From assembly GCF_056746865.1 (NCBI RefSeq), contig NZ_CM163382.1: 64,000 bases of DNA; one strand, written 5' to 3'. Below are positions 1-47,347 of the stretch, piece after piece. How positions within the stretch are numbered: position 1 is the stretch's first letter; each line of letters starts with the position of its first letter. The notes below the pieces were generated by a model. It did no database searches. It was given only the letters and a program-made list of their open reading frames with translations, and had not been told where the DNA came from. A program made the translations under genes and the position numbers.

Positions 1-1243
1 ACGCGTCTATATCCGAAAAATACTCTTTAATTCCCTCTAGGATAGATTCTGCCACTTGTTGTTGGAATCTTGCCGTTTTCAGTTTGCGCTCTTCCTCAAC
101 GTTACTGATAAACGCCGTTTCGACCAGAATGGAGGGAATATCAGGTGCTTTCAGCACGGCAAACCCGGCCTGTTCAACCTGATTTTTATGCAGCTTGTTG
201 ATTTTACCGAGCTTATTCAGCACCGCTTTACCCAACTTCAGGCTGTCGGCAATGGTCAGCGACTGCACCATATCGAACATGGTGTGGTCGACATAGCGGT
301 CACCGCTTTTGCTCACGCCGCCAATCAAGTCCGAGGCGTTCTGGGTTTGTGCCAGATATTTTGCCGCAGTACTTGTCGCGCCTTTGGTCGAAAGCGCAAA
401 CACGGAAGAACCGCTCGGCTGGCGACTGGTAAAGGCATCAGCATGGATAGAAACAAAAAGGTCAGCACGTTGTTTCTGTGCTTTTGCTACACGCACTTGC
501 AACGGAATGAAGATGTCTTCATTGCGCGTCATGTACACCTTCATATTACCCTCTTTTTCGATCAGAGAGCGCAGACGGCGAGCTATTTGCAATACCACGT
601 CTTTTTCGCGTGTTTTGTATTTCCCCACCGCACCGGGGTCTTCGCCACCGTGGCCGGGGTCAAGCATAATGACAATCGGACGATCACGCCCTGCTTTACC
701 CGGTTGTGGACCACTTTGTGCTGGCGGCACCTGCTTTTCGAGGTCGCCTTTGTTGTAATCCTCCAGCAGCGCCAGCAGCGGGTCCTGCATATCCTGTGCA
801 TTGGCCGGATAGAGGTCCATCACCAGACGCTCTTTAAACCCGGCGACCGGCGCAAGGGCAAACAGCTGCGGTTTTACGTTTTGCTTTAATTCAAAAACCA
901 TGCGTACGGTTTGCGGGTCAAATTGCCCGACGCGCGCCGACTTGATGAACGGGTCGTCTGCACGAATTTGTGCCGCCATCCCCTTGAGTACCGAGTTCAG
1001 GTTTACATCTTCGATATCCACCACCACACGTTCAGGGTTACTTAACGCGAACTGCTTATATTGCAGCTGACGATTTGATTCTACCGTCACGCGGGTGTAG
1101 CTGGACGCAGGCCAGACGCGTACCGCCACGACCTGGCTGACCGCAGCCAGGCTGACCTGACTTACGCTCAATAGCCACATGGCGCCCGCACCTTGCAGTA
1201 AACGACGACGGCTGATTACATAATTATAGTTAGATACCAGCAT
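1..1243 (-). CDS. amiC: N-acetylmuramoyl-L-alanine amidase AmiC, partial (C-terminus beyond window start)
   Basis: Minus-strand frame open from ATG at 1241-1243 to position 1; N-terminus [33 protein letters not shown] has a Tat motif and matches AmiC from memory. Absent from the ORF track because it runs off the window edge. Confidence 0.75.
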
Positions 1244-1895
1244 ACCTTACCTAAGCAATACAATGTTCAATAATATAACTATGCTCTAATAAATTTTTAC
1301 AGGTGTTTAAAGAAATAATCACACGTATTCTTATCTTTGCAATCTAATCTAATTTTAAATAAAGGTCAATATCTTATTTTTTGATATAAGTTTTCTTAAA
1401 TACCACGATATAAAAACATTTTATTTAAGTGATTTCTTTTAGTTTGTTTTTCAAATAAAAGGGATGTACTCATGACATTTTAAATATGTACATCATGCAC
1501 AGCAATATTATAGTTTTTATCTGATTACTGAGAAGTATCTATCAATAGAACAATGTTTTTTAGTTTGTATAGGGAAGAGTTGGGTTGAATTGAGAATAAA
1601 AACTAGAGATTACTGGGGAAGGAACTTTTCAAATCCGAAATCATGGTCTACAATGAAAAAATGATGTTCTAAGTATTCCTATCATGAATAAGAATGCACC
1701 ATATTTTGAATAGTATAATTTTATATTTATATATCCTTTACTGTACGATGATGATATTTTATGCCTGAATGACAAGGGTGTTATTTTATACCACATATAA
1801 ATTTGCAGAAAATATAAAATGAGAAGCACTGAATAATCGCGGCTTCTGGCTATGATTTAAATGTTTTTACATTTTTTCAAAGTAAATTCAGTTCA

Positions 1896-29771: not shown

Positions 29772-29836
29772 CGTAATTTTATTACAAAAGGCGACAACTA
29801 CCTTGAAAAACGCCGTTATTGAGTGATCTCCTTTCA

Positions 29837-30415
29837 TGAAAATACGCATACGCCGCGCAGTACCCGCTCTCTGAAGCGCAGATACCTCCCCTTATCAATG
29901 AGATGTCCCATATGGAGGTAAACCGGTTTACCGTCCAGCATTTCTTTTTCAAATTCGAACAGGTTTGATATGACCTGTCTGATGACATCTTCTGTAACCC
30001 AGTTAAGGAAAACTTTCCCTGCCCGTGGCGTTTTTTTACCGGTTCTTCCTCCCAGACGAACCTGCCAGAACTCCTGCGGCTGACGCTGCCAGGCAAGGGT
30101 GGGACATGCCAGAACACATTCTCCGCATCCGATACAGAGCGACTCTTCCTTTGTGGCTTTGCCGTTCTTTAATGACAGGCACCCCACGGCGTGGTGCGCA
30201 CAGGCTTTCACACAGGCGCCACATCCGATGCAACGTTCTGCCGTAAAACGCATTCTGGCCACACCAATAATGCCAAAGTCTGACATGGAGGCTTTGGCAC
30301 AGTCATTCGGACACCCGGCAATGACGGTTTTCAGGTGATAGGCGCTGGGATAAATCAGCTTTTCCAGCCGCCGGGATAAACCTGTGGTGTCGGTATTGGC
30401 TTTCTGGCAAATCCG
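29837..30415 (-). pseudogene. asrC: Anaerobic sulfite reductase subunit C remnant (asrC), 5' part deleted, 3' end cut by IS3-family insertion
   Basis: ...[21 protein letters not shown]...CPNDCAKASMSDFGIIGVARMRF...CIGCGACVKAC...CIGCGECVLACP; the stop codon is the TGA formed by the IS terminus. Confidence 0.55.
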
Positions 30416-31035
30416 GTTACTATCGCCTGCATGGTGCTGATATCTTCAAATGTCAGTGCTGCCAGATGGTCAGTGACCCGCCCGGTACGGTAACGTTCAT
30501 CCGCCTCGCCTTCATCCAGGGTCAGAATGAGATTGTGGTGCCGGTGCCAGTTCGCCATCTCCTGCCTGTACAGCACACATTCCCGGTTTCTGTAACCAAA
30601 AATTATGTCAAGCTGGTTGATTTCCTGCGGGTTTTCGACGAAATAGCGCATTAACCCTTTGACTGGCGCAACGCCAGTACCGCCGGCAATGACCACCAGA
30701 GATTTGTGGCGGAAGGCATCAACAGGATAGCCGTTACCATAACAGCCACGAAGCCATACCCTGTCGCCTTCACGGAGGGTAAAAAGCGCGCCGGTCACTT
30801 TGCCGACATTGCGGATAAGCAGGTCTGCCCAGCCCTCTCCGCAGTCAGAAACAGAAATGGGCGCCTCCCCGACACATGGCAGGGAGACTTCGACAAACTG
30901 TCCCCAGCGAGCCGGAAAATCGATTTCCACACGGAAATTCCACTCCTGTGGTGTATGACGGGTGATGGAAATAATGCGGTATGCAGCAGGCAAAAGGCTG
31001 TGCTTTTCTTTATCGTGACAGGAACACGTTGACAC
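30355..31035 (-). pseudogene. asrB: Anaerobic sulfite reductase subunit B remnant (asrB), C-terminal Fe-S region lost
   Basis: [32 protein letters not shown]... flavoprotein domain; after ...MQAIV the frame leaves AsrB and the asrC frame begins, consistent with a deletion joining asrB to mid-asrC. Confidence 0.55.
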
Positions 31036-31038
31036 AGG

Positions 31039-31922
31039 TTATGCCTCCCCGGAGAGTGCCTGCCGGACAGCGGCAGTCATTTTATTGATAATACGTGAGA
31101 ATTTAATGTACTGAGGACAACGGTCATCGCAGCGTCCGCAGCCCACGCACATATGCTCAGTACCATTGCGGGCTTTGTAATCATTGACTTTATGAAGTGC
31201 ACGGTAACGTAAACGTTCTCCCGCAGACTGGCGAAAACGGTGTCCGCCGGCCATATCGCTGAAACCCGGTACCATACAGCTGGCCCACTGGCGACGGCGT
31301 TCACCGCGCTGAGGATTTTCGTCATAAGCCACATCAAAAACGCTGTAGCAGGTACAGGTCGGACACCCGGTTGTGCAGCGCCCGCAACCAATACAGCGAC
31401 TGTTGTACTCATCCCAGAGCGGATGATTGATAATAATGTCGCGAACTTTTTGGGGGGACTGACAGATTTTTTCAGGGAGGGTAACCTGCTCCAGGTTTTC
31501 GCTGACGAAGACAGGCTCATATTCCGTGCTCTGTCCCATTCCCTGTAAGGCTTCTTCAAAAAAAGCATCCCTGATAAAAACACTGGCACCGTCATCACTG
31601 AAACGCATTGCCGCGCTGTAATTATCGGTTTTATTGCTCCCCATGGAGACACAGAAGCAGTTTTCAAAACTTTGCGGACACTCAATCAGCACAAAGCGAA
31701 TATGGTCGCGCAGTCGCTGATAACTGTAATCAGAATTATTCCCGTTTGATAAATACATATAATCCAGCCGCGACATGGCATTAATGTCACAGGCGCGGGC
31801 AAATATCAGTACTGGTGTGGTATCCGTCTCCGCAATCTGGATAGTGTCTTTATTAAAATAAAAGAGCGTCTCTGTTATTGGTGAAATAACCGTACTAGGT
31901 GACATGTGGGATTTCTCCTGCC
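31039..31922 (-). pseudogene. asrA: Anaerobic sulfite reductase subunit A (asrA), 5' end cut by IS2
   Basis: Two 4Fe-4S ferredoxin motifs ([26 protein letters not shown]); the N-terminal extension of ORF 31039-31959 is IS2 terminus read-through. Confidence 0.6.
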
Positions 31923-31933
31923 TGGATTTGCCC

Positions 31934-32839
31934 CTATATTTCCAGACATCTGTTATCACTTAACCCATTACTGGTCCGCTGCCGCAGATATTCCCGTGGC
32001 GAGCGATAACCCAGCGCACTATGCGGATGCCATTCGTTATAATGCTCGAACGCCTCTGCAAGGTTCTTTGCTGCCGTTAACCCGTCTGGTTTGGGCATGA
32101 TACTGATGTAGTCACGCTTTATCGTTTTCACGAAGCTCTCTGCTATTCCGTTACTCTCCGGACTCCGCACCGCCGTGTTCTTCGGTTCAAGTCCCAACAT
32201 CCGGGCGAACTGGCGTGTTTCATTAGCCCGGTAGCATGAACCATTATCCGTCAGCCACTCCACTGGAGACGACGGAAGATCGTTGCCGAAGCGGCGTTCC
32301 ACCGCTCCTGGCATGACGTCCTGTACTGTTTCACTGTTGAAGCCGCCGGTAGTGACCGCCCAGTGCAGTGCCTCACGATCACAGCAGTCCAGCGCGAACG
32401 TGACACGCAGTCTCTCTCCGTTATCACAGCAGAACTCGAACCCGTCAGAGCACCATCGCTGATTGCTTTCTTTCACGGCCACTCTGCCAGTATGTGCCCG
32501 TTTCGATGGCGGTACAGCGGTTTTTCGCTCAAGCAACAGCGCATTCTGGCGCATGATCCGGTAAACACGTTTGGCATTGATCGCAGGCATACCATCAAGT
32601 TCGGCCTGTCTGCGAAGCAGCGCCCATACCCGACGATAACCATACGTGGGCAGCTCTCCGATAACATGGTGTATACGGAGAAGCACATCCGTATCATCTG
32701 AGTGACGGCTGCGGCGACCATCTTTCCAGTCATCGGTTCGTCTGAGAATTACGTGCAACTGCGCACGCGACACCCGGAGACAACGGCTGACTAAGCTTAC
32801 TCCCCATCCCCGGGCAATAAGGGCGCGTGCGCTATCCAC
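31934..32839 (-). CDS. insD: IS2 OrfB (InsD)
   Basis: 301 aa [30 protein letters not shown]... Confidence 0.85.
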
Positions 32840-33207
32840 TTTTTTGCACGCCCGTATTCAACGGCTTCTTTAAGGAGTTCATTTTCCATCGTTTTTTTGC
32901 CGAGCAGGCGCTGGAGTTCTTTAATCTGCTTCATGGCAGCAGCAAGTTCAGAGGCAGGAACGACCTGCTCTCCTGCGGCCACAGCAGTAAGACTTCCCTC
33001 CTGGTATTGCTTGCGCCAGAGAAATAACTGGCTGGCTGCCACACCGTGTTGCCGGGCAACAAGGGAGACCGTCATTCCCGGTTCAAAACTCTGCTGAACA
33101 ATAGCGATCTTTTCCTGTGTAGTACGCCGTCTGCGTTTCTCCGGTCCTAAGACATCAATCATCTGCTCTCCAATGACTAGTCTAAAAACTAGTATTAAGA
33201 CTATCAC
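32797..33207 (-). CDS. insC: IS2 OrfA (InsC)
   Basis: 136 aa [47 protein letters not shown]... Confidence 0.85.
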
Positions 33208-33413
33208 TTATTTAAGTGATATTGGTTGTCTGGAGATTCATGGGGCCAGTCTAGCAGATTATGGTGCGCAGTTATACAACAGCAGTAATGAGGAGTCTAC
33301 TATTTCTCTTGTTATGCCAGATGCAATTGAATGGAACGGAAAGAATACGCCAAGACGGCAATACATGATAAAATATATTGCCGTATTTAAATATTAAAAT
33401 TTATTTTTGTAGA

Positions 33414-33821
33414 TCATCTGAATTTTCGGTGACCTTCAAGTTTTATATCGTTCATTTTATCCAGAGACTCACGTAATGATTCTATATTCCCGTCCTCAAC
33501 TTTCTTTTTTGCAATATTGATTTCATGTTGTAGTTTTTTTAACTCTTCCTTATAACTATCTACAGAAACTTTATCATTAACATCTATCTTTTCAGGAATA
33601 ATATTCATAGAAGAATCTACAGATTTATCCATCATTTCAAGAGCATTTAATAGTGATGATTTATCATTGGAAGATTGTAGAATACTCATACTTTTGGCAA
33701 GAGACTGCATGTTTTTATCCAGGCCGGAAGCCAAAGATACGTTGCTGAGAGATAAAAAAATAGCTAGTACAGCACCTGAGAAAAATACCTTTTGTTTTTT
33801 CATTAATATATTCCTGTTCAA
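33414..33821 (-). CDS. Secreted cytochrome b562-like protein (divergent, AT-rich)
   Basis: Signal peptide, then GLDKNMQSL... and C-terminal ...LEGHRKFR paralleling CybC ADLEDNMETL... and ...NAYHQKYR; both candidate haem ligands (Met, His) are present. Confidence 0.45.
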   Translation of the reverse strand: MNRNILMKKQKVFFSGAVLAIFLSLSNVSLASGLDKNMQSLAKSMSILQSSNDKSSLLNALEMMDKSVDSSMNIIPEKIDVNDKVSVDSYKEELKKLQHEINIAKKKVEDGNIESLRESLDKMNDIKLEGHRKFR

Positions 33822-34219
33822 AGTTGATTATAGTTATGTCAATTTAAGTTTATTATTATGATTTTTTATTTTTGTACTATGAATCTCCTGTATGCTTATA
33901 TGTGCAGAAAATCTCATTTTATCAAGAAGAATATCAAATTTTCTCCGATACTTCTACATACTCCATCATTCATGCTCCTTTTATCCGTGCACCGTAAAAC
34001 CCCGTCCTTCAGCGGGGGATATAAGGCGCTGTTTTCCACCTAACCAGGTGTCTGCTGCTATTCAATGTATTGGCGGATGACGGATGCCGCCCGTTGAAGC
34101 AGGACCCCTCGTCCTTAGGGCGTGGAGGATGTCAAAATGAAAACTTGTGGTATGAATCAATCCATTCATCATCCTTTCGGATCATTGCATTCAGTATAAC
34201 GCTGGGTAATGACTCCAAC

Positions 34220-35180: not shown

Positions 35181-35687
35181 GTGAGTCATATGAAGGCAAC
35201 CAATATAGACCCTCAACTGCTTGAAAAAGCCACGAGTATCTTTGCTGAGTTGGGCTTACCTATTGAGCAGGCTATTAACGTCTTTTTAGCTAAATCCGTT
35301 CAAGCCAAAGGTTTTCCGTTTTCTGTTGCTCTTGAAAATGAAGTAGAGACACGGGAAGTTGCACAAACGCAACACAATATCAGCAATGCAGAGATAACCG
35401 AAGCTATCCAAGACTTGGTTGAACATGCTCTACCACTGAGTGAAATAGAAAACCTCACGCAGCTAACCTATTGTCGCAACATTTTTGGGTTGTCATTCCC
35501 CGTGCTCAAACTGGCTAAATCATCACGGCCAGAAGACATTCGCAGTGCAGCCAAAGATGCCAAAGAGCGAAACCGCTACTCCACCACTAAAGTGGCCCAG
35601 CGAGATGAAAAAACCTATGTTATTTGCACCCAATGGACCGACAGACATCGTTCTGCATTTTGCCGTTGGCAAGCCATCTTTAGCTAG
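35181..35687 (+). CDS. DinJ/RelB-like ribbon-helix-helix domain protein with uncharacterised C-terminal extension
   Basis: N-terminal about 45 aa (...IDPQLLEKATSIFAELGLPIEQAINVFLAKSVQAKGFPF) follows the DinJ pattern; remaining 120 aa unrecognised. Track start is GTG; an ATG lies at 35190. Confidence 0.5.
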   Translation: MSHMKATNIDPQLLEKATSIFAELGLPIEQAINVFLAKSVQAKGFPFSVALENEVETREVAQTQHNISNAEITEAIQDLVEHALPLSEIENLTQLTYCRNIFGLSFPVLKLAKSSRPEDIRSAAKDAKERNRYSTTKVAQRDEKTYVICTQWTDRHRSAFCRWQAIFS

Positions 35688-37733: not shown

Positions 37734-39019
37734 TGAATGCTGGCAACATAGTAGATGCTTTCGTATCTGACTCGAAATGGAACTCAGTACCAGCTAAACG
37801 TTTATTTACGAGTAGCAAAGAAATCAATCAAGGAATGAAAGAATCTAATCGTCTTGCACTAACAATGAAAGGTGTCATAAACCGCTCGTTAGACGATTTA
37901 CAAGGACTTCAATCTTCTGATTACTCTGTTTATCAGATTTTTGAAAAAGATGACTTAGTTTTTAAGCTCATAGATCTTGAAAATATAAAGACTAGCCGAG
38001 TGGGGATTGTGCATGAACGAGGAATAATGAGCCCTGCATACATCCGTGTTTCAGCGAGTTCAAATAGCATCTACCCAAGGTTCTATTACTGGTACTTTTT
38101 TGCTCTATACCTAACCAATATTTATAACAAACTGGGTGGAGGAGTTCGTCAGAACCTAACAGCTGGTGATCTTTTAGAAATACCTGTTCCACTGATTGAT
38201 ATTTCATTACAGAAGCAGGTTAGCACATTCCTTGATCGCGAAACCCAGCGCATCGACAGTCTGATCGAGGAAAAGCAGACCTTTATTAAGCTGCTCAAAG
38301 AAAAACGCCAAGCACTGATCAGCCATGTGGTCACAAAGGGGCTCTATCCCAATGTGGAGATGCAGGACTCTGGCATCGAGTGGATTGGGCAAGTGCCGAA
38401 GCATTGGGAAGTCAAAAAGATAAAGCATATTTGCTCCAACTTTATGTATGGAACCTCTCAAGACTGTAACCAGTCTGATGTTGGCTATCCTGTTCTCAGG
38501 ATACCAAACATCAAGAGTACCAATGTTGATTTTGAAGATCTCAAATATGCAAATATCAGTGATGTTGATGCTTTAACTTATCTTTTATCAAGAGGCGACA
38601 TTTTAGTCATCAGAACTAACGGTAACCCTAATCTGGTCGGCCAAAGCGCGCTTTTTGATTCAAATGGGCAGTATTTATTTGCGTCGTACCTAATAAAGTT
38701 AACACCAAAGCAAGGAGTGGATACTAGCTTCTTAGTGGAAGCGATGAACTCACTATCTGTTCGTCAAGCATTAACATTTCAGTCAAGAACATCGGTAGGT
38801 AACTACAACCTGAGCATTCCTTCACTAGCTAATACAAGTATTGCTATCCCACCAATTGATGAGCAAAAGACAATAACGAATTACTTGAGTGCAGCAACGA
38901 TAAACATTGATTTACTGATTCAAGAGACTGATAAATCGATTGATCTTCTAAAAGAACACCGCACATCGCTGATCAACGCGGCTGTCACAGGAAAAATAGA
39001 CGTCAGGGAGGCGGTGTAA
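37733..39019 (+). CDS. hsdS: Type I R-M specificity subunit HsdS
   Basis: 428 aa with two variable AT-rich target-recognition regions separated by a conserved coiled-coil segment; overlaps hsdM stop and hsdR start. Confidence 0.8.
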   Translation: MNAGNIVDAFVSDSKWNSVPAKRLFTSSKEINQGMKESNRLALTMKGVINRSLDDLQGLQSSDYSVYQIFEKDDLVFKLIDLENIKTSRVGIVHERGIMSPAYIRVSASSNSIYPRFYYWYFFALYLTNIYNKLGGGVRQNLTAGDLLEIPVPLIDISLQKQVSTFLDRETQRIDSLIEEKQTFIKLLKEKRQALISHVVTKGLYPNVEMQDSGIEWIGQVPKHWEVKKIKHICSNFMYGTSQDCNQSDVGYPVLRIPNIKSTNVDFEDLKYANISDVDALTYLLSRGDILVIRTNGNPNLVGQSALFDSNGQYLFASYLIKLTPKQGVDTSFLVEAMNSLSVRQALTFQSRTSVGNYNLSIPSLANTSIAIPPIDEQKTITNYLSAATINIDLLIQETDKSIDLLKEHRTSLINAAVTGKIDVREAV

Positions 39020-42000
39020 TGGCTGCACATCATGAAGTGCATTTTGAACAATATATTACCGAGCAGTTGGTGAACAATGGCTGGAAAGAAGGCCATTCCT
39101 GCCACTATGACCAGCAACGCGCCCTTTACCCGCAAGATGTCATGGATTGGGTAAAGGCCACCCAGCCAGATGCCTGGCACAAACTGAATAAACTGCATGG
39201 TGTGAATGCCGAGCAGGTGCTGTTGGAGCGTTTGGAAAAAGCCCTCTCTTCCCACAAAGCTGGCAGTAAAACAGGTGGCACCATTAATGTGCTGCGTAAA
39301 GGCTTTACCATTGCAGGTTGCGGCACGATTGCCATGGGCCAACGCAAACCCGAAGATGCGCGCAATGAAGAGCGTATAGCCCGTTATGAGCACAACATTT
39401 TGCGCGTGGTGCGCCAACTGAAATATTGCCCGACTCGCGAGTGGGAAATTGACTTGGTGTTCTTTATCAACGGTCTACCCGTTGCCACCGCCGAGCTAAA
39501 AACCGATTTTACCCAGTCGCTAGAATCGGCGATTGCGCAGTACAAAGAGGATCGTCTGCCCGTTGACCCAAAAACCAAGCGTAAAGAGCCGCTGTTAACC
39601 TTTAAACGCGGTGCAGTGGTACATTTTGCCATGTCTGATACAGAAATCGCCATGGCGACCAAACTGGCGGGAGAAAATACCTATTTTCTGCCCTTCAATA
39701 AAGGCCATGATGGTTCTACCTCTGATTTGCCCGTACACATCAACTTGCCGGGTGAAGATGGAGAGTATCCGGTCAGCTATTTTTGGCAAGAAATTGCCCA
39801 AAAAGATAATTGGCTACGCATTTTCTACAGCTTTGTGTATGTCGAAACCAAAGAGGTTGCCGATAGCAATGGCAAGGTTGAGCGTAAGGAAACACAGATT
39901 TTTCCGCGTTATCATCAGTTAGCCGCAGTCAACAAGATGATTGATGATGCCCGCCAGAACGGCGCAGGCATGCAGTATCTTTGTGAGCACAGCGCCGGTT
40001 CGGGAAAAACCTCTACCATAGCCTGGACGGCCCATGATTTGATTCGTTTACGCAGCACCGATGGTAAAGCGGTCTTTAAATCAGTGATCATTGTGACCGA
40101 CCGCACCGTGCTGGATTCGCAGTTGCAAGATGCGGTGCAACAGCTGGATCATCAATATGGGGTGATTAAGGTGATTGATCGCGAAAAGAGCAGCGAGTCG
40201 AAATCAAAACAGCTGACTGAAGCGCTATTGACTGGCACGCCGATCATTGTAGTGACGATTCAAACCTTCCCATATGCGTTAGAAGCGATTCTGACCAATC
40301 AATCTTTGGCACAAAGTAACTTTGCGGTGATCATCGATGAAGCACACACCTCGCAAACAGGCTCTACAGCCAAAGGGTTACGCGCAGCGCTTACTCTAAA
40401 CCTTAGCCCTCAAGAGTTGGAGCAAATGAGCATTGAGGACATTCTTACTAAGGTGCAAGAAGCGCGCGCCATGCCCAAGAACGTTTCGCACTTTGCTTTT
40501 ACGGCAACACCCAAGCACAGCACCAAGATGTTGTTTGGCCGCCCGAAAGACCCTAACCAACCAGTGTCAGATGACAATCTTCCTGAATCGTTCCACCTCT
40601 ACACCCAACGTCAGGCCATTGATGAGGGTTTTATTCTTGATGTGCTGGAGAATTACACCCACTACGATACAGCCTACAAAATTGGTGAGAACAATCTGGA
40701 TGAGAAGCGCGTAGACAGCAAACAAGCTCGCCGCGCGTTGGCGCGCTGGATGTCACTGCACCCAACCACGGTCAGCCAAAAAGTCGAATTTATTATTAAG
40801 CACTTCAAGGCCAATATCGCTCACCTACTGGAAGGTGAAGCCAAAGCCATGGTGGTCACATCGGGCAGGCCACAGGCGGTGAAATACAAGCTTGCTTTTG
40901 ATAAATACATTAAAAAGCATGGTATTGAAGGTATCCAAGCCTTGGTTGCCTTCTCGGGCAAAGTCCCCGGCAAAGATTTGGGTGATGAAGACAGCCAAGA
41001 CCCGCTAGAAATTGATTTCGATAAAGAGTACACCGAGTACAACTTAAACCCAGACACGCACGGGGCTGACCTGCGCCATGAGTTTGAGAAAACCGAATAT
41101 CGCGTCATGTTAGTCGCCAACAAGTTCCAAACGGGCTTTAATCAACCAAAACTGGTTGCCATGTATTTGGATAAGAAAATATCCGATGTAGAAGCGGTGC
41201 AAACGCTGTCTCGCCTAAACCGCACCTATCCAGGCAAAGACACAACCTTCGTGATTGATTTTGTTAACGATCCACAAACCATTCTCAATGCGTTCAAAAA
41301 GTACGACAAAGGCGCGCAGCTTAATGAAGTGCAAGATGTGAACGTCATCTATGACATCAAAGATATTTTGGATGAACAGAACATATACAACCATCAAGAT
41401 TTAGAGTTGTTTAAGCAAGCGCGTGGTAAATCGATTCTCGGCCAATCACCTGACAAAAAGTCACACGCGCACAAGAAACTGCTAGCTGCCACACAACGCC
41501 CTACCGATGTGTTCAACGTTAAGCTCAAAGAGCTGGTTGATGCTGCAAACCATTGGGATCAGCAATACAACAAAGCGCACCTTGCGGGTGATGAAAAAGC
41601 GGCGAACTACGCAGAATCTCAGCGCAGTGATTTCACCAAGCAGCGCGAAGCACTAATGCGTTTTAAGTCAGATTTAGCTCGATTTGTGAAGCACTATAGC
41701 TATATGAACCGCCCCGGGTTTCCTGGAGAGTGTTTTATCTGTGAACTCAGGCTGCCAGATCATCGTTTCCGATGGAAGCATAATAAGCTTTTTCTGCTTC
41801 TGCCGGAGGAGTATGGCCCAGCCTTCCCAGCAATCGTCGATTGTTATACCAGTCCACCCACGTTAGTGTGGCCAGTTCCACTTCTGCACGGTTTTTCCAG
41901 CTCTTACGGTGTATTACCTCCGCTTTGTAAAGACCATTGATGCTCTCAGCCATCGCGTTGTCATACGAGTCGCCTGTACTCCCTGTTGATGCCAGTAATC

Positions 42001-43568
42001 CGGCTTCTTTTAGTCGCTCCGTATAGGCCAGTGACACATACTGAGAGCCTTTATCGCTGTGATGGATGGTGCCAGACGGACGACGGGCCCACAACGCCTG
42101 CTCCAGCGCATCCAGCACGAATGTCGTTTCCATAGACGATGAGACCCGCCACCCCACGATGTATCCGGCAAACACATCAATGATAAACGCCACATAGACG
42201 AAGCCCTGCCATGTGCTGACGTAAGTAAAATCAGCCACCCACAGCTGGTCAGGTCGTTCTGCCACGAACTGACGGTTTACGCGGTCGCCTGCGGCAACGG
42301 CTTTCCGGCTGATGGTCGTACGGACCTTTTTACCCCGGAGAACACCGGCAAGTCCCATAACCGCCATGAGACGTGCCACTGTACATCTGGCCACCCTGAT
42401 TCCTTCCCGTAACAACTGACGCCAGACTTTACGCACACCGTACACCTGATGATTTTCATCGTATACGCGCTGTATCTCTCTCTTCAGCCAGTCGTCGTGC
42501 TGCGCACGGGCACTGCGTTTATCCGGATGATGTCGCTGTTGCTGACAATGGTAATACGTTGACGGGGCAATATGCAGTTCGCTGCATACCGGTCCGACCC
42601 CGTACTGCTCACGCAGCTTATCCAGCAGTGGCATCATTTTTTCCAGAGGCGGTCGAACTCCGCCTTCGCAAAATAAGCGGAAGCCTGGCGAAGGATATCG
42701 TTACTGCGGCGCAGTTCACGATTTTCACGTTCCAGCTCTTTCAGACGCTGACGTTCAGCGCTGGTGAGCCCACCATCACCGCCCCCGGTATCCCGCTCAT
42801 GCTGGCGAACCCAGACACGCAGAGTCTCCGGCGTACAGCCAATCTTTGGGGCAATGGAACAAATTGCCGCCCACTGTGAGTCATATTCATCCTGACTTTC
42901 CAGAACCATACGAATCGCCCGCTGACGGACTTCGGGGGAAAAACGAGTATTTTTAGTCATCCTGTTTACCTCTTTCTCAGGGAGTTTAGTCTCCAGGATT
43001 TCCGGGGCGGTTCAATATGGCGCAATTGATTGAGTTTGGTGATCCTGAACTGGAAAACTTTGCCGCGTTTGCTCATTTGCTATCACGTCGATTGAAAGGG
43101 GTAACACCAGAAAACATCGATCTCAGTGCACTGGTACTAGAAAAATTCAAAATCAAATACGACAAAGAGCCGCTTCCAGAAGCGTTTAATCAGGTACTTG
43201 AACCTATCCGCCCCAACTATAACGACCCTGCGGATCGTGAACAGGCATTTCTTGCCGATATCATTCGCCGCCTAAACGAACTGTTTGGCGATGTCGGCGA
43301 CGAACCCGGTCGCCGAAACTTTGCCAACGGTACTATTACGCGTGTCACCCAAAATCCAATTGTGGTTGAGCAGATAGAAAAGCACGACAAGTCGATTGCC
43401 CTCAAAGGCGACTTGCCGCAAGCGGTGAAGCAAGCCGTTGTGCAGGCTCTGCTGAAAGAAGGTGATATAGCCCGAACGCTACTCAAAGACCCACAAGTTA
43501 TGGCAAGTTATGTTGAGTTGATTTTTGACATGATGAAGCAAGGTGCAGAACAGGCGGCGGTGAAATAA
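39019..43568 (+). pseudogene. hsdR: Type I restriction enzyme R subunit HsdR, split by IS629 (insert 41705-43014)
   Basis: Helicase motifs (SAGSGKTS, DEAH-box-like IIDEAH); the frame is continuous across the insertion once IS629 and one ATA duplication are removed. Confidence 0.8.
41705..43014 (-). mobile_element. IS629, copy 1 (1310 bp), 3-bp target duplication ATA
   Basis: Ends TGAACCGCCCCGGGTTTCC... and ...GGTTCA; OrfA 42634-42960 and OrfB 41747-42637 match IS629 from memory. Confidence 0.9.
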
Positions 43569-44984: not shown

Positions 44985-47347
44985 ATGAAGGTTGATTCAA
45001 TGGCCGATAACATCCCACAAGCTCCTCAAGGTGAGTTTGTTCTTTTCACCAGTGCTGATGGTCAAACCCGCGTTGAGTGTCGTTTTGAGTCTGACACCTT
45101 GTGGCTTTCTCAGGCTGCAATGGCAGAGCTTTATCAAGTTAGCTCTCAAGCAATCACCCAACACGTAAAAGCTGTCTATTCTGAAGAAGAGCTTGAGCAA
45201 ATTTCAACTTGTAAGGATTACTTACAAGTTCAACTGGAAGGTGGCAGAGAAGTAAAGCGAAGCATTCGTCACTACAGTCTTCCGGTTATTCTTGCAGTAG
45301 GATACCGAGTTCGCTCAACACGTGGCACCCAGTTCCGCCAATGGGCAACCAGAATGTTGCAAGTGAACCGCCCCGGGTTTCCTGGAGAGTGTTTTATCTG
45401 TGAACTCAGGCTGCCAGATCATCGTTTCCGATGGAAGCATAATAAGCTTTTTCTGCTTCTGCCGGAGGAGTATGGCCCAGCCTTCCCAGCAATCGTCGAT
45501 TGTTATACCAGTCCACCCACGTTAGTGTGGCCAGTTCCACTTCTGCACGGTTTTTCCAGCTCTTACGGTGTATTACCTCCGCTTTGTAAAGACCATTGAT
45601 GCTCTCAGCCATCGCGTTGTCATACGAGTCGCCTGTACTCCCTGTTGATGCCAGTAATCCGGCTTCTTTTAGTCGCTCCGTATAGGCCAGTGACACATAC
45701 TGAGAGCCTTTATCGCTGTGATGGATGGTGCCAGACGGACGACGGGCCCACAACGCCTGCTCCAGCGCATCCAGCACGAATGTCGTTTCCATAGACGATG
45801 AGACCCGCCACCCCACGATGTATCCGGCAAACACATCAATGATAAACGCCACATAGACGAAGCCCTGCCATGTGCTGACGTAAGTAAAATCAGCCACCCA
45901 CAGCTGGTCAGGTCGTTCTGCCACGAACTGACGGTTTACGCGGTCGCCTGCGGCAACGGCTTTCCGGCTGATGGTCGTACGGACCTTTTTACCCCGGAGA
46001 ACACCGGCAAGTCCCATAACCGCCATGAGACGTGCCACTGTACATCTGGCCACCCTGATTCCTTCCCGTAACAACTGACGCCAGACTTTACGCACACCGT
46101 ACACCTGATGATTTTCATCGTATACGCGCTGTATCTCTCTCTTCAGCCAGTCGTCGTGCTGCGCACGGGCACTGCGTTTATCCGGATGATGTCGCTGTTG
46201 CTGACAATGGTAATACGTTGACGGGGCAATATGCAGTTCGCTGCATACCGGTCCGACCCCGTACTGCTCACGCAGCTTATCCAGCAGTGGCATCATTTTT
46301 TCCAGAGGCGGTCGAACTCCGCCTTCGCAAAATAAGCGGAAGCCTGGCGAAGGATATCGTTACTGCGGCGCAGTTCACGATTTTCACGTTCCAGCTCTTT
46401 CAGACGCTGACGTTCAGCGCTGGTGAGCCCACCATCACCGCCCCCGGTATCCCGCTCATGCTGGCGAACCCAGACACGCAGAGTCTCCGGCGTACAGCCA
46501 ATCTTTGGGGCAATGGAACAAATTGCCGCCCACTGTGAGTCATATTCATCCTGACTTTCCAGAACCATACGAATCGCCCGCTGACGGACTTCGGGGGAAA
46601 AACGAGTATTTTTAGTCATCCTGTTTACCTCTTTCTCAGGGAGTTTAGTCTCCAGGATTTCCGGGGCGGTTCAAAGAATACCTAATCAAAGGATTCGTCA
46701 TGGATGACGAGCGCCTGAAAAATCCGCCCATTGGCCATTCTGCTGTGCCAGATTACTTTGATGAAATGCTGGAACGCATTCGTGATATCCGAGCTAGTGA
46801 GCGTCGCGTTTATCTGCGAGTCAAAGAAATCTTTACCATGGCTGCTGATTACGAGCCATCTAACCAAGAGACCAACCGCTTCTTCCAAACCATTCAGAAT
46901 AAGCTGCATTATGCTTGTACGCATATGACGGCTGCTGAGCTTATCGCCAGCCGTGTGGATGCCAGTAAGCCGGATATGGGCTTAACCAGCTATAAAGGCG
47001 ATGAAGTGCGCAAGACAGACGTTACTGTTGCCAAGAACTATTTGCGTGAAGACGAAATCAAAGAGCTTAATCGCATCGTCAATATGTGGCTCGACTTTGC
47101 TGAAGACCAAGCACTGCGTCGCAAGCAGGTATTTTTACAGGACTGGGCCGATAAGCTTGACCAGTTCTTGAGTTTTAACGATAGAGATGTATTAAACGGT
47201 GCAGGAAAAATCTCCAAGAAAGACGCTGATGACAAAGCGAAATTGGAGTTTGACCGCTTTGCCCAGCAGCGCCGTCGTTTAAAAGAAGCCGAAGGCGCAC
47301 GGGCCAATATCGCAGCCCTCAAGGCCATACTAAAAAAAGATAAATAG
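44985..47347 (+). pseudogene. rhuM: RhuM-family protein, split by IS629 (insert 45364-46673)
   Basis: N-terminal part ...YSLPVILAVGYRVRSTRGTQFRQWATRMLQ; frame continues after the IS once one AAG duplication is removed. Confidence 0.65.
45364..46673 (-). mobile_element. IS629, copy 2 (1310 bp), 3-bp target duplication AAG
   Basis: ORF products identical to copy 1; same orientation. Confidence 0.9.

Follow-up and report, generated by a model that had tools for sequence, protein, structure and literature searches.

To our knowledge, the physiological role of cytochrome b562 is still undefined despite its decades as a model protein. One described arrangement is that of Yersinia pestis, where katY, cybC and cybB were predicted to be linked from their co-expression and a single transcript was confirmed by RT-PCR (PMC2231364). 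The katY and cybC genes are adjacent there, as y0869 and y0870, and under iron starvation CybC rose 4.7-fold and was marked as Fur-regulated, while KatY went down (PMC2835676). A second is the b562 homologue L7018 of plasmid pO157, whose product was detected in EHEC by proteomics and was 6.3-fold higher in the piglet gut than in culture (PMC3686733). A literature search found no functional study of b562 in connection with katP, katY, aatA or virulence plasmids, or of the pairing of peroxidase and b562 genes.

We analysed a 64,000-nucleotide stretch of contig NZ_CM163382.1 (assembly GCF_056746865.1), here called the window, in which a further gene of this family lies. An earlier note, made from the letters of this DNA, had described a divergent, AT-rich gene for a b562-like secreted protein. 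It is likely that the gene encodes a periplasmic, haem-binding protein of the b562 family. We find a divergent gene, acquired horizontally, from a family that is already known; what is new here is its placement as an orphan sister of the b562 genes that are linked to katP, and the repeated peroxidase-b562 gene pair as a lead to b562 function.

The gene and its product

The features of the gene itself are as follows.

33414..33803, minus strand: b562-family coding sequence, 129 codons plus a TGA stop at 33416-33414 (from the list of open reading frames, Pfam and RefSeq)
33812..33815, minus strand: Shine-Dalgarno-like AGGA, 8 nt 5' of the ATG at 33803, kept in 5 of 5 aligned upstream regions
33729..33803, minus strand: Sec-type signal peptide, codons 1-25 MKKQKVFFSGAVLAIFLSLSNVSLA, followed by SGLDKNM
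33708..33710, minus strand: predicted axial haem ligand Met, codon 32 (ATG), mature Met7 as in CybC, an invariant column
33429..33431, minus strand: predicted axial haem ligand His, codon 125 (CAC), mature His100 corresponding to CybC His102, an invariant column

The gene had been given the extent 33414-33821. An open reading frame of that extent does exist on the minus strand (135 codons counted from a TTG at 33821), but this TTG is merely the most upstream in-frame start, and the ATG at 33803, which RefSeq uses for the 129-residue protein WP_029490539.1, is the likelier start codon. RefSeq/PGAP names this protein 'cytochrome b562', at equal coordinates in 100%-identical genomes, so the gene is already named in public annotation and is not undescribed. 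The predicted mature protein has 104 residues, a mass of 11.8 kDa, a pI of 6.1 and no cysteine. The gene has a G+C content of 31.5% (GC3 25%) and the core between the flanking IS elements (33254-33990) one of 30.9%, against 52.9% in IS2, 52.6% in IS1 and 48% over the whole window, where stretches of 390 bp that are equally AT-rich make up 1.2%. The AT-rich reading frame that had been pointed out is thus real, at 31.5% G+C beside ∼53% in the flanking IS2 and IS1.

The signal peptide was called solely from inspection and hydropathy: a positive n-region (MKKQK) is followed by a hydrophobic stretch and the cleavage motif S-L-A, and inspection found no lipobox cysteine. Its highest 10-residue Kyte-Doolittle mean is 2.53, compared with 2.63 in CybC. 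The region aligns with the CybC signal peptide, cleavage sets the ligand methionine at mature position 7 as in CybC, and in the AF2 model it has low pLDDT and is non-helical. For the description 'secreted', 'exported to the periplasm' is the better wording.

The protein matched the Pfam family PF07361 (Cytochrom_B562) over profile positions 2-102 of 102 with 55.7 bits, where the gathering cut-off is 30 (E = 8.3e-15), whilst its 66 bits fell short of the cut-off of 130 bits for the NCBIfam CybC equivalog (NF011632 / PRK15058). By these profiles the protein is a member of the b562 family and not a CybC equivalog or orthologue. Its distance from E. coli CybC is as large as had been described: the identity is 19%, and tblastn with CybC gave no match in the window even at E <= 10. 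A phmmer search of PDB sequences matched b562 weakly (E = 9e-4), and 1.8 billion cluster representatives, searched exhaustively, yielded only 30 matches; once the protein's own cluster and some short fragments are set aside, the top full-length match among these had 43% identity and the others 25-36%.

The retention of both haem-ligand positions, which the earlier note had also reported, was borne out in an alignment of 26 sequences, in which the invariant columns were M32, P70 and H125 only. M32 aligns with Met7, and H125 with His102, the haem ligands of mature E. coli CybC. The methionine motif is present in 42 of 44 full-length homologues, and the C-terminal motif reads GHRKFR in the window protein and YHQKYR in CybC. 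Mapped through the alignment onto structure 256B, the positions that we take to line the haem pocket of CybC are kept at L3, L10, M33 and R106. The substitutions that we presume to fall in the pocket appear mostly conservative (F61Y, F65L, R98K and Y105F); Y101G would be the non-conservative exception, so that some of the presumed pocket aromatics differ.

From this alignment AF2 predicted a four-helix bundle with a pLDDT of 84 (helices 25-44, 48-66, 78-103 and 107-128). When the model was compared with the PDB using Foldseek, the top full-length matches were all b562 or its engineered variants, with TM scores of 0.89-0.91 and an rmsd of 1.3-1.5 Å over 104 residues. The predicted structure thus has the b562-type fold, an antiparallel four-helix bundle that in this family spans about 106 residues. 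The conserved ligand columns suggest that one haem b is probably held non-covalently, with Met7 of helix 1 and His100 of helix 4 as its axial ligands. Such a Sec-exported periplasmic bundle would act as a small one-electron carrier with Met/His-ligated haem b.

A mobile gene between two insertion sequences

The gene lies in a short segment that is free of IS sequence and has the following landmarks.

33254..34204, no strand: non-IS segment carrying the gene, bounded by IS2 (about 31923-33253) and IS1 (from 34205)
33825..33900, minus strand: conserved upstream block with TTGACA (33842-33837), TATAAT (33832-33827), TTCATA-17-CATAAT (33883-33855) and the motif CATACAGGAGAT
33350..33395, minus strand: stem-loop, a possible terminator with an imperfect U-tract, ∼20 nt 3' of the stop codon

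The segment has a G+C content of 35.1%, and the end of IS2 was read straight from the sequence. A stretch of 1,056 bp, lying between the IS ends and running into them, is 99.5-100% identical to plasmids pGF4-A and pEc673-2 and includes both the IS2 junction and position 34205. These plasmids carry an intact or partial LysR gene 5' of the b562 gene, the order in pEc673-2 and in an APEC O2:K1 plasmid being cysteine hydrolase, DUF2877, fdrA, DUF1116, arcC, a small hypothetical gene, cytosine permease, LysR, b562 and IS2. The IS2 junction in the window is that of the plasmids, and IS1 has replaced everything from 33 bp past the LysR stop codon. The identity of this IS-bounded segment to the plasmids indicates that the window copy came from a plasmid and was caught between two insertion sequences; on this account it would have been copied from the LysR-b562-IS2 arrangement and left behind in a tRNA-Phe island, with IS2 on one side and IS1 on the other.

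A search of 5,426 complete E. coli genomes placed the coding sequence in 152 of them (2.8%), at 176 sites, 129 of these on plasmids. The carrier plasmids are mostly of 140-290 kb and come from chickens, ducks and human extraintestinal isolates; the lineage thus sits mostly on large plasmids of poultry and ExPEC strains, and an 851-bp segment is near-100% identical across 144 records. The proposed horizontal origin is well supported by the IS2 and IS1 flanks, the tRNA-Phe island and this sparse, largely plasmid-borne distribution. A peptide-pattern scan of one genome per species, covering 100,044 species, gave no donor species, and its matches were confined to five contigs, all short. Three of these, binned as Lachnospiraceae MAGs, extend far enough to include the upstream gene; they carry katP at 97-99% identity and for that reason are probably mis-binned enterobacterial plasmid DNA.

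In the protein database the lineage forms four allele groups, all from E. coli, with about 98%, 82%, 72% and 66% identity to the window protein, together with one Klebsiella protein at 81%. The 66% allele, on IncF plasmids, lies between a PhoX phosphatase gene and a 3,498-bp aatA-type autotransporter gene (L004 4821-12603); this autotransporter shares 95.8% identity with its counterpart on pAPEC-O1-ColBM, where aatA was described (PMC2944236). The neighbours of the 72% allele (allele B) are SSB, PerC and ProQ genes. Many database copies of allele B (P0040-P0048) end within the last 3-7 codons, around the ligand histidine, and in P0042 different residues stand in place of the histidine region. 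The pattern resembles repeated insertions or assembly breaks at the 3' end, which would often remove a haem ligand. Frameshifted variants of the protein also exist (P0031 and P0038).

Pairwise dN/dS among the four alleles (66-82% protein identity) is 0.12-0.29 at dS values of 0.3-1.2, from which it follows that purifying selection has acted on the protein throughout its movement as a single gene. This bears on whether the gene is an intact passenger with no role in its host, carried by IS elements and plasmids, probably silenced because it is AT-rich, and heading to decay. Such a fate would accord with a gene stranded between two IS elements whose upstream neighbour is deleted, in an island rich in pseudogenes (asrABC fragments, frameshifted transposases and an interrupted hsdR), and the near-100% identity of the 851-bp segment in 144 records speaks of recent spread rather than long retention. 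The decayed copies point the same way: allele-B genes with shortened 3' ends, some without the ligand histidine and one with its codon replaced, and the frameshifted P0031 and P0038. However, the dN/dS values reflect selection over the life of the orphan clade, and the window copy itself retains an intact frame, signal peptide, both ligands, ribosome-binding site and upstream block. We consider the passenger explanation distinctly improbable, and prefer a functional periplasmic b562-family protein.

DNA homology among the alleles is confined to the gene, with 100-170 bp on its 5' side and about 60 bp on its 3' side. The upstream block is common to allele A, allele B and the Klebsiella copy, with homology gone further out, and it probably holds the gene's own promoter. 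A sigma-70 promoter scan gave one minus-strand site, fewer than in shuffled sequences. The TTGACA and TATAAT cannot form a single promoter, being spaced by merely 4 nt. Downstream, homology with the Klebsiella and allele-B loci reaches about 33352. The stem-loop at 33350..33395 has an RNA fold of −16.2 kcal/mol (z = −4.06 against shuffles), whilst a terminator scan flagged only a short hairpin (33360-33348) that overlaps the 3' arm of this stem. A G+C-rich hairpin at 34000-34017 folds no better than shuffles (z = −1.5) and is possibly the terminator of the lost LysR gene. Given its 31% G+C, the gene may be silenced by H-NS in E. coli.

Because of the Yersinia proteomics, the upstream regions were also scanned for Fur boxes. 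The best matches, 11-14 of 19 positions, were no better than in shuffles and were not conserved in position for any allele, allele B being marginal (p about 0.04). On the other strand, a 74-residue open reading frame (33173-33397, plus strand) starts within the terminal 80 bp of IS2, reads outward and converges on the b562 gene; it is a 'hypothetical protein' in some RefSeq genomes and has no Pfam match. Starting as it does inside the IS2 end, it is probably a read-out artefact and not a gene. Read-out transcription from IS2 could run antisense to the 3' end region of the b562 gene.

In E. coli from poultry and humans, this mosaic island is located at a tRNA-Phe gene; its cargo includes iha, PhoX and nanXY as well as a type I restriction system and numerous IS elements. 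Fragments of asrC, asrB and asrA (anaerobic sulfite reductase, a Salmonella-type trait) are pseudogenes at 29834-31959 on the minus strand, annotated by transfer from the near-identical strain EC332, and asrA is cut by the same IS2 that flanks the b562 gene. The PhoX gene of the window (14890-16869; 659 residues, Pfam PhoX E = 1e-165) is 16.5 kb from the b562 gene. Since b562 and PhoX are neighbours on IncF plasmids, this separation suggests that the island was assembled from rearranged plasmid pieces; near the window PhoX gene no second b562 copy or allele-C remnant was found. Positions 39019-42637 and 45406-46296 hold a type I restriction R-subunit reading frame, with 973 residues compared with 1,078 in related genomes, and two identical copies of an IS3-family transposase reading frame (295 residues, with rve and HTH_21 domains). 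The R-subunit frame runs into one copy, the other lies 3.7 kb onward, and hsdR thus appears to be interrupted in this strain. Directly 5' of hsdM, a 168-residue reading frame (35181-35687, plus strand) has a RelB-antitoxin domain at its N-terminus only, with no toxin gene evident beside it. The most AT-rich stretch of the window (1141-1640, 25-30% G+C over about 500 bp) has no reading frame of >= 40 residues on either strand.

Peroxidase-linked relatives and possible roles

In a neighbour-joining tree of the mature regions, the orphan alleles formed one clade (100% bootstrap) and the katP-type proteins another (96.5%), with the two as sisters (100%). The window protein is 43-46% identical to katP-type proteins and 19-30% identical to other b562 proteins. 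A tblastn search of plasmids gave 494 further records below 60% identity, including pO157, with 43-46% among the matches listed. At six loci, katP-type copies lie 3' of a 736-737-residue catalase-peroxidase that is 87-100% identical to KatP, at distances of 39-46 nt where measured. On pO157 (EDL933), L7018 starts 46 nt past katP and 1.2 kb before espP, and the closest database relatives of the window protein, P0060 and P0061, follow 737-residue peroxidases (87% identical to KatP) by 39-42 nt. The next lineages out in the point-estimate tree, P0075 on a Citrobacter chromosome and P0080 from E. coli, lie 28 and 53 nt after peroxidases of 738 and 730 residues. Since their grouping with this clade has a bootstrap of 27-29% only, calling the clade ancestrally peroxidase-linked is a parsimony argument. 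P0080 gave no tblastn match among plasmids, and a Salmonella plasmid member of the katP-type clade is without katP and lies near sodC.

The arrangement of a KatG-type peroxidase gene (730-738 residues) followed 28-53 nt later by a b562 gene recurs in at least five distinct lineages, namely on pO157, on two more E. coli elements, in another lineage of E. coli and in Citrobacter. The pairs occupy the following positions.

L014, 3741-6384 (pO157): peroxidase-b562 pair
L012, 5749-8390: peroxidase-b562 pair
L013, 2175-4690: peroxidase-b562 pair
L022, 2756-5387: peroxidase-b562 pair
L023, 2755-5375: peroxidase-b562 pair

The katP-b562 spacer of pO157 contains a G+C-rich hairpin, GAGGGAGG-GCA-CCTCCCTC, with no U-tract.

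The window gene has no such neighbour within tens of nucleotides 5', and tblastn with KatP found no match or remnant in the window or in any orphan-allele locus. The canonical b562 representative P0079 follows pmbA; the window gene lies instead between IS2 and IS1. A function different from that of CybC, as had been suggested, is possible, the sole pointer being that the sister lineage is the operon partner of KatP whilst chromosomal cybC follows pmbA.

These relationships suggest a history for the window gene. It is part of an AT-rich branch carried by mobile elements in Escherichia, Salmonella and Klebsiella, and is not a CybC orthologue. An ancestor of this branch may have served a periplasmic catalase-peroxidase, most simply as electron donor for the peroxidatic cycle, by analogy with katY-cybC-cybB of Yersinia. 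Because that operon also encodes a membrane cytochrome b561, electrons would most simply pass from the membrane to b562 and on to the peroxidase, a tentative suggestion that we hold conceivable without expecting it. The window lineage would then have become detached from the peroxidase gene and have survived as a lone gene with a promoter region of its own. Taken alone, a former peroxidase partnership of the lineage is plausible rather than likely. The opposite responses of CybC and KatY to iron starvation in Y. pestis fit poorly with strict co-function (PMC2835676). Since the peroxidase neighbour was lost and yet the protein has stayed constrained, a partner may be encoded elsewhere or the protein may have a stand-alone role. 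The neighbours of the orphan alleles differ (a LysR metabolic cluster; PhoX and aatA; SSB, PerC and ProQ) and so point to no particular present partner.

Alternatively, the protein could be a haem-binding periplasmic buffer or chaperone and not an electron carrier, one that binds haem weakly and, encoded just 3' of the peroxidase gene, hands it to KatP or KatY after export; the orphan copies could then buffer or scavenge periplasmic haem in iron-limited hosts. KatP and KatY have Sec-type signal peptides, the N-terminus of KatP, MIKKTLPVLILLALSGSFSTAVAADKK, lacking a twin-arginine motif, and must therefore receive haem b after export. The tight linkage of the katP-b562 pairs, the additional invariant methionines of the clade (M66 and M117) and the Fur-marked, 4.7-fold rise of Y. 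pestis CybC in iron starvation, opposite to KatY (PMC2835676), would also fit with haem handling. However, no Fur box above chance was found 5' of any allele, and the presence of cybB, for a membrane cytochrome b561, in the Yersinia operon suggests an electron path rather than haem delivery (PMC2231364). We regard a haem buffer as quite unlikely, and an electron carrier remains the preferred reading.

This b562 branch is also found repeatedly upstream of or near autotransporter genes: espP (L014 7610-11509), aatA (L004 9106-12603) and one on the Salmonella plasmid (L015 1-1485) that is accompanied by AraC-like and ANR regulators. With gaps of 0.7-4.5 kb, this proximity may be a coincidence on virulence plasmids.

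A role for the protein as a haem-free bundle with a new job, for example as an accessory or periplasmic factor for neighbouring autotransporters, would draw on two settings in which b562-like genes lie 0.7-1.2 kb 5' of an autotransporter gene (espP on pO157 and the aatA allele), on the autotransporter about 4.5 kb from the Salmonella plasmid copy, and on the merely 19% identity to CybC. The gaps are, however, too long for an operon, virulence plasmids are autotransporter-rich anyway, and neither the window copy nor the common plasmid context has an adjacent autotransporter gene. Pocket changes are mostly conservative and, above all, the axial ligands are invariant in all lineages, which makes this the weakest option and a very unlikely one indeed. 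We therefore retain a haem-binding electron carrier as the preferred reading.

For the window itself the result is modest: an accessory gene, rightly recognised and named in existing annotation, that serves as a marker of DNA from plasmids within the mosaic island. More broadly, the E. coli pan-genome contains several non-orthologous b562 lineages, of which several, including the sister of the window lineage, are tied to a periplasmic catalase-peroxidase. The recurring peroxidase-b562 pair (on pO157, other E. coli elements and Citrobacter, and by publication in Yersinia) is a lead to the physiological role of b562, for which the orphan lineage, constrained without a peroxidase, is a natural control. 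It is fairly unlikely, on present indications, that the b562 branch including this gene is a dedicated periplasmic partner of Sec-exported KatP or KatY, whether as electron donor or as haem supplier. If it were, cytochrome b562 would gain a testable function, and the orphan copies on poultry and ExPEC plasmids would contribute to oxidant defence in trans or work with another enzyme of the periplasm.

Comparison with known systems

E. coli CybC (PDB 256B) and the window protein share the Pfam family PF07361, a Sec signal peptide, Met7 and a C-terminal histidine four residues before the end. The mature lengths are 106 and 104 residues, respectively, and the predicted bundle superposes on 256B with a TM score of 0.90 and an rmsd of 1.4 Å. 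Unlike CybC, the window protein has a helix 2-3 loop that is two residues shorter and six methionines where CybC has three. It is also set apart by the 19% identity, the pocket changes F65L and Y101G, the 31% G+C of its gene and a plasmid or island location in place of the chromosomal pmbA-cybC site.

In Y. pestis, the CybC gene is directly behind a periplasmic catalase-peroxidase gene, as are the b562 genes of the window's sister lineage (PMC2231364). The Y. pestis gene is chromosomal and accompanied by the cytochrome b561 gene cybB, and it is likened to the window lineage by gene arrangement, not by sequence.

L7018 of pO157, a 'putative cytochrome b562 family protein' encoded in the katP-espP interval, belongs to the sister of the window lineage (44% identity). 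It has the same length, ligands and C-terminal H-x-KFR motif as the window protein, and its gene is likewise AT-rich (38% G+C) and carried on IncF virulence plasmids. The two genes differ in their surroundings: L7018 lies 46 nt behind katP and is probably co-transcribed with it, whereas the window gene has no nearby peroxidase gene and has the upstream block shared by allele A, allele B and the Klebsiella copy.
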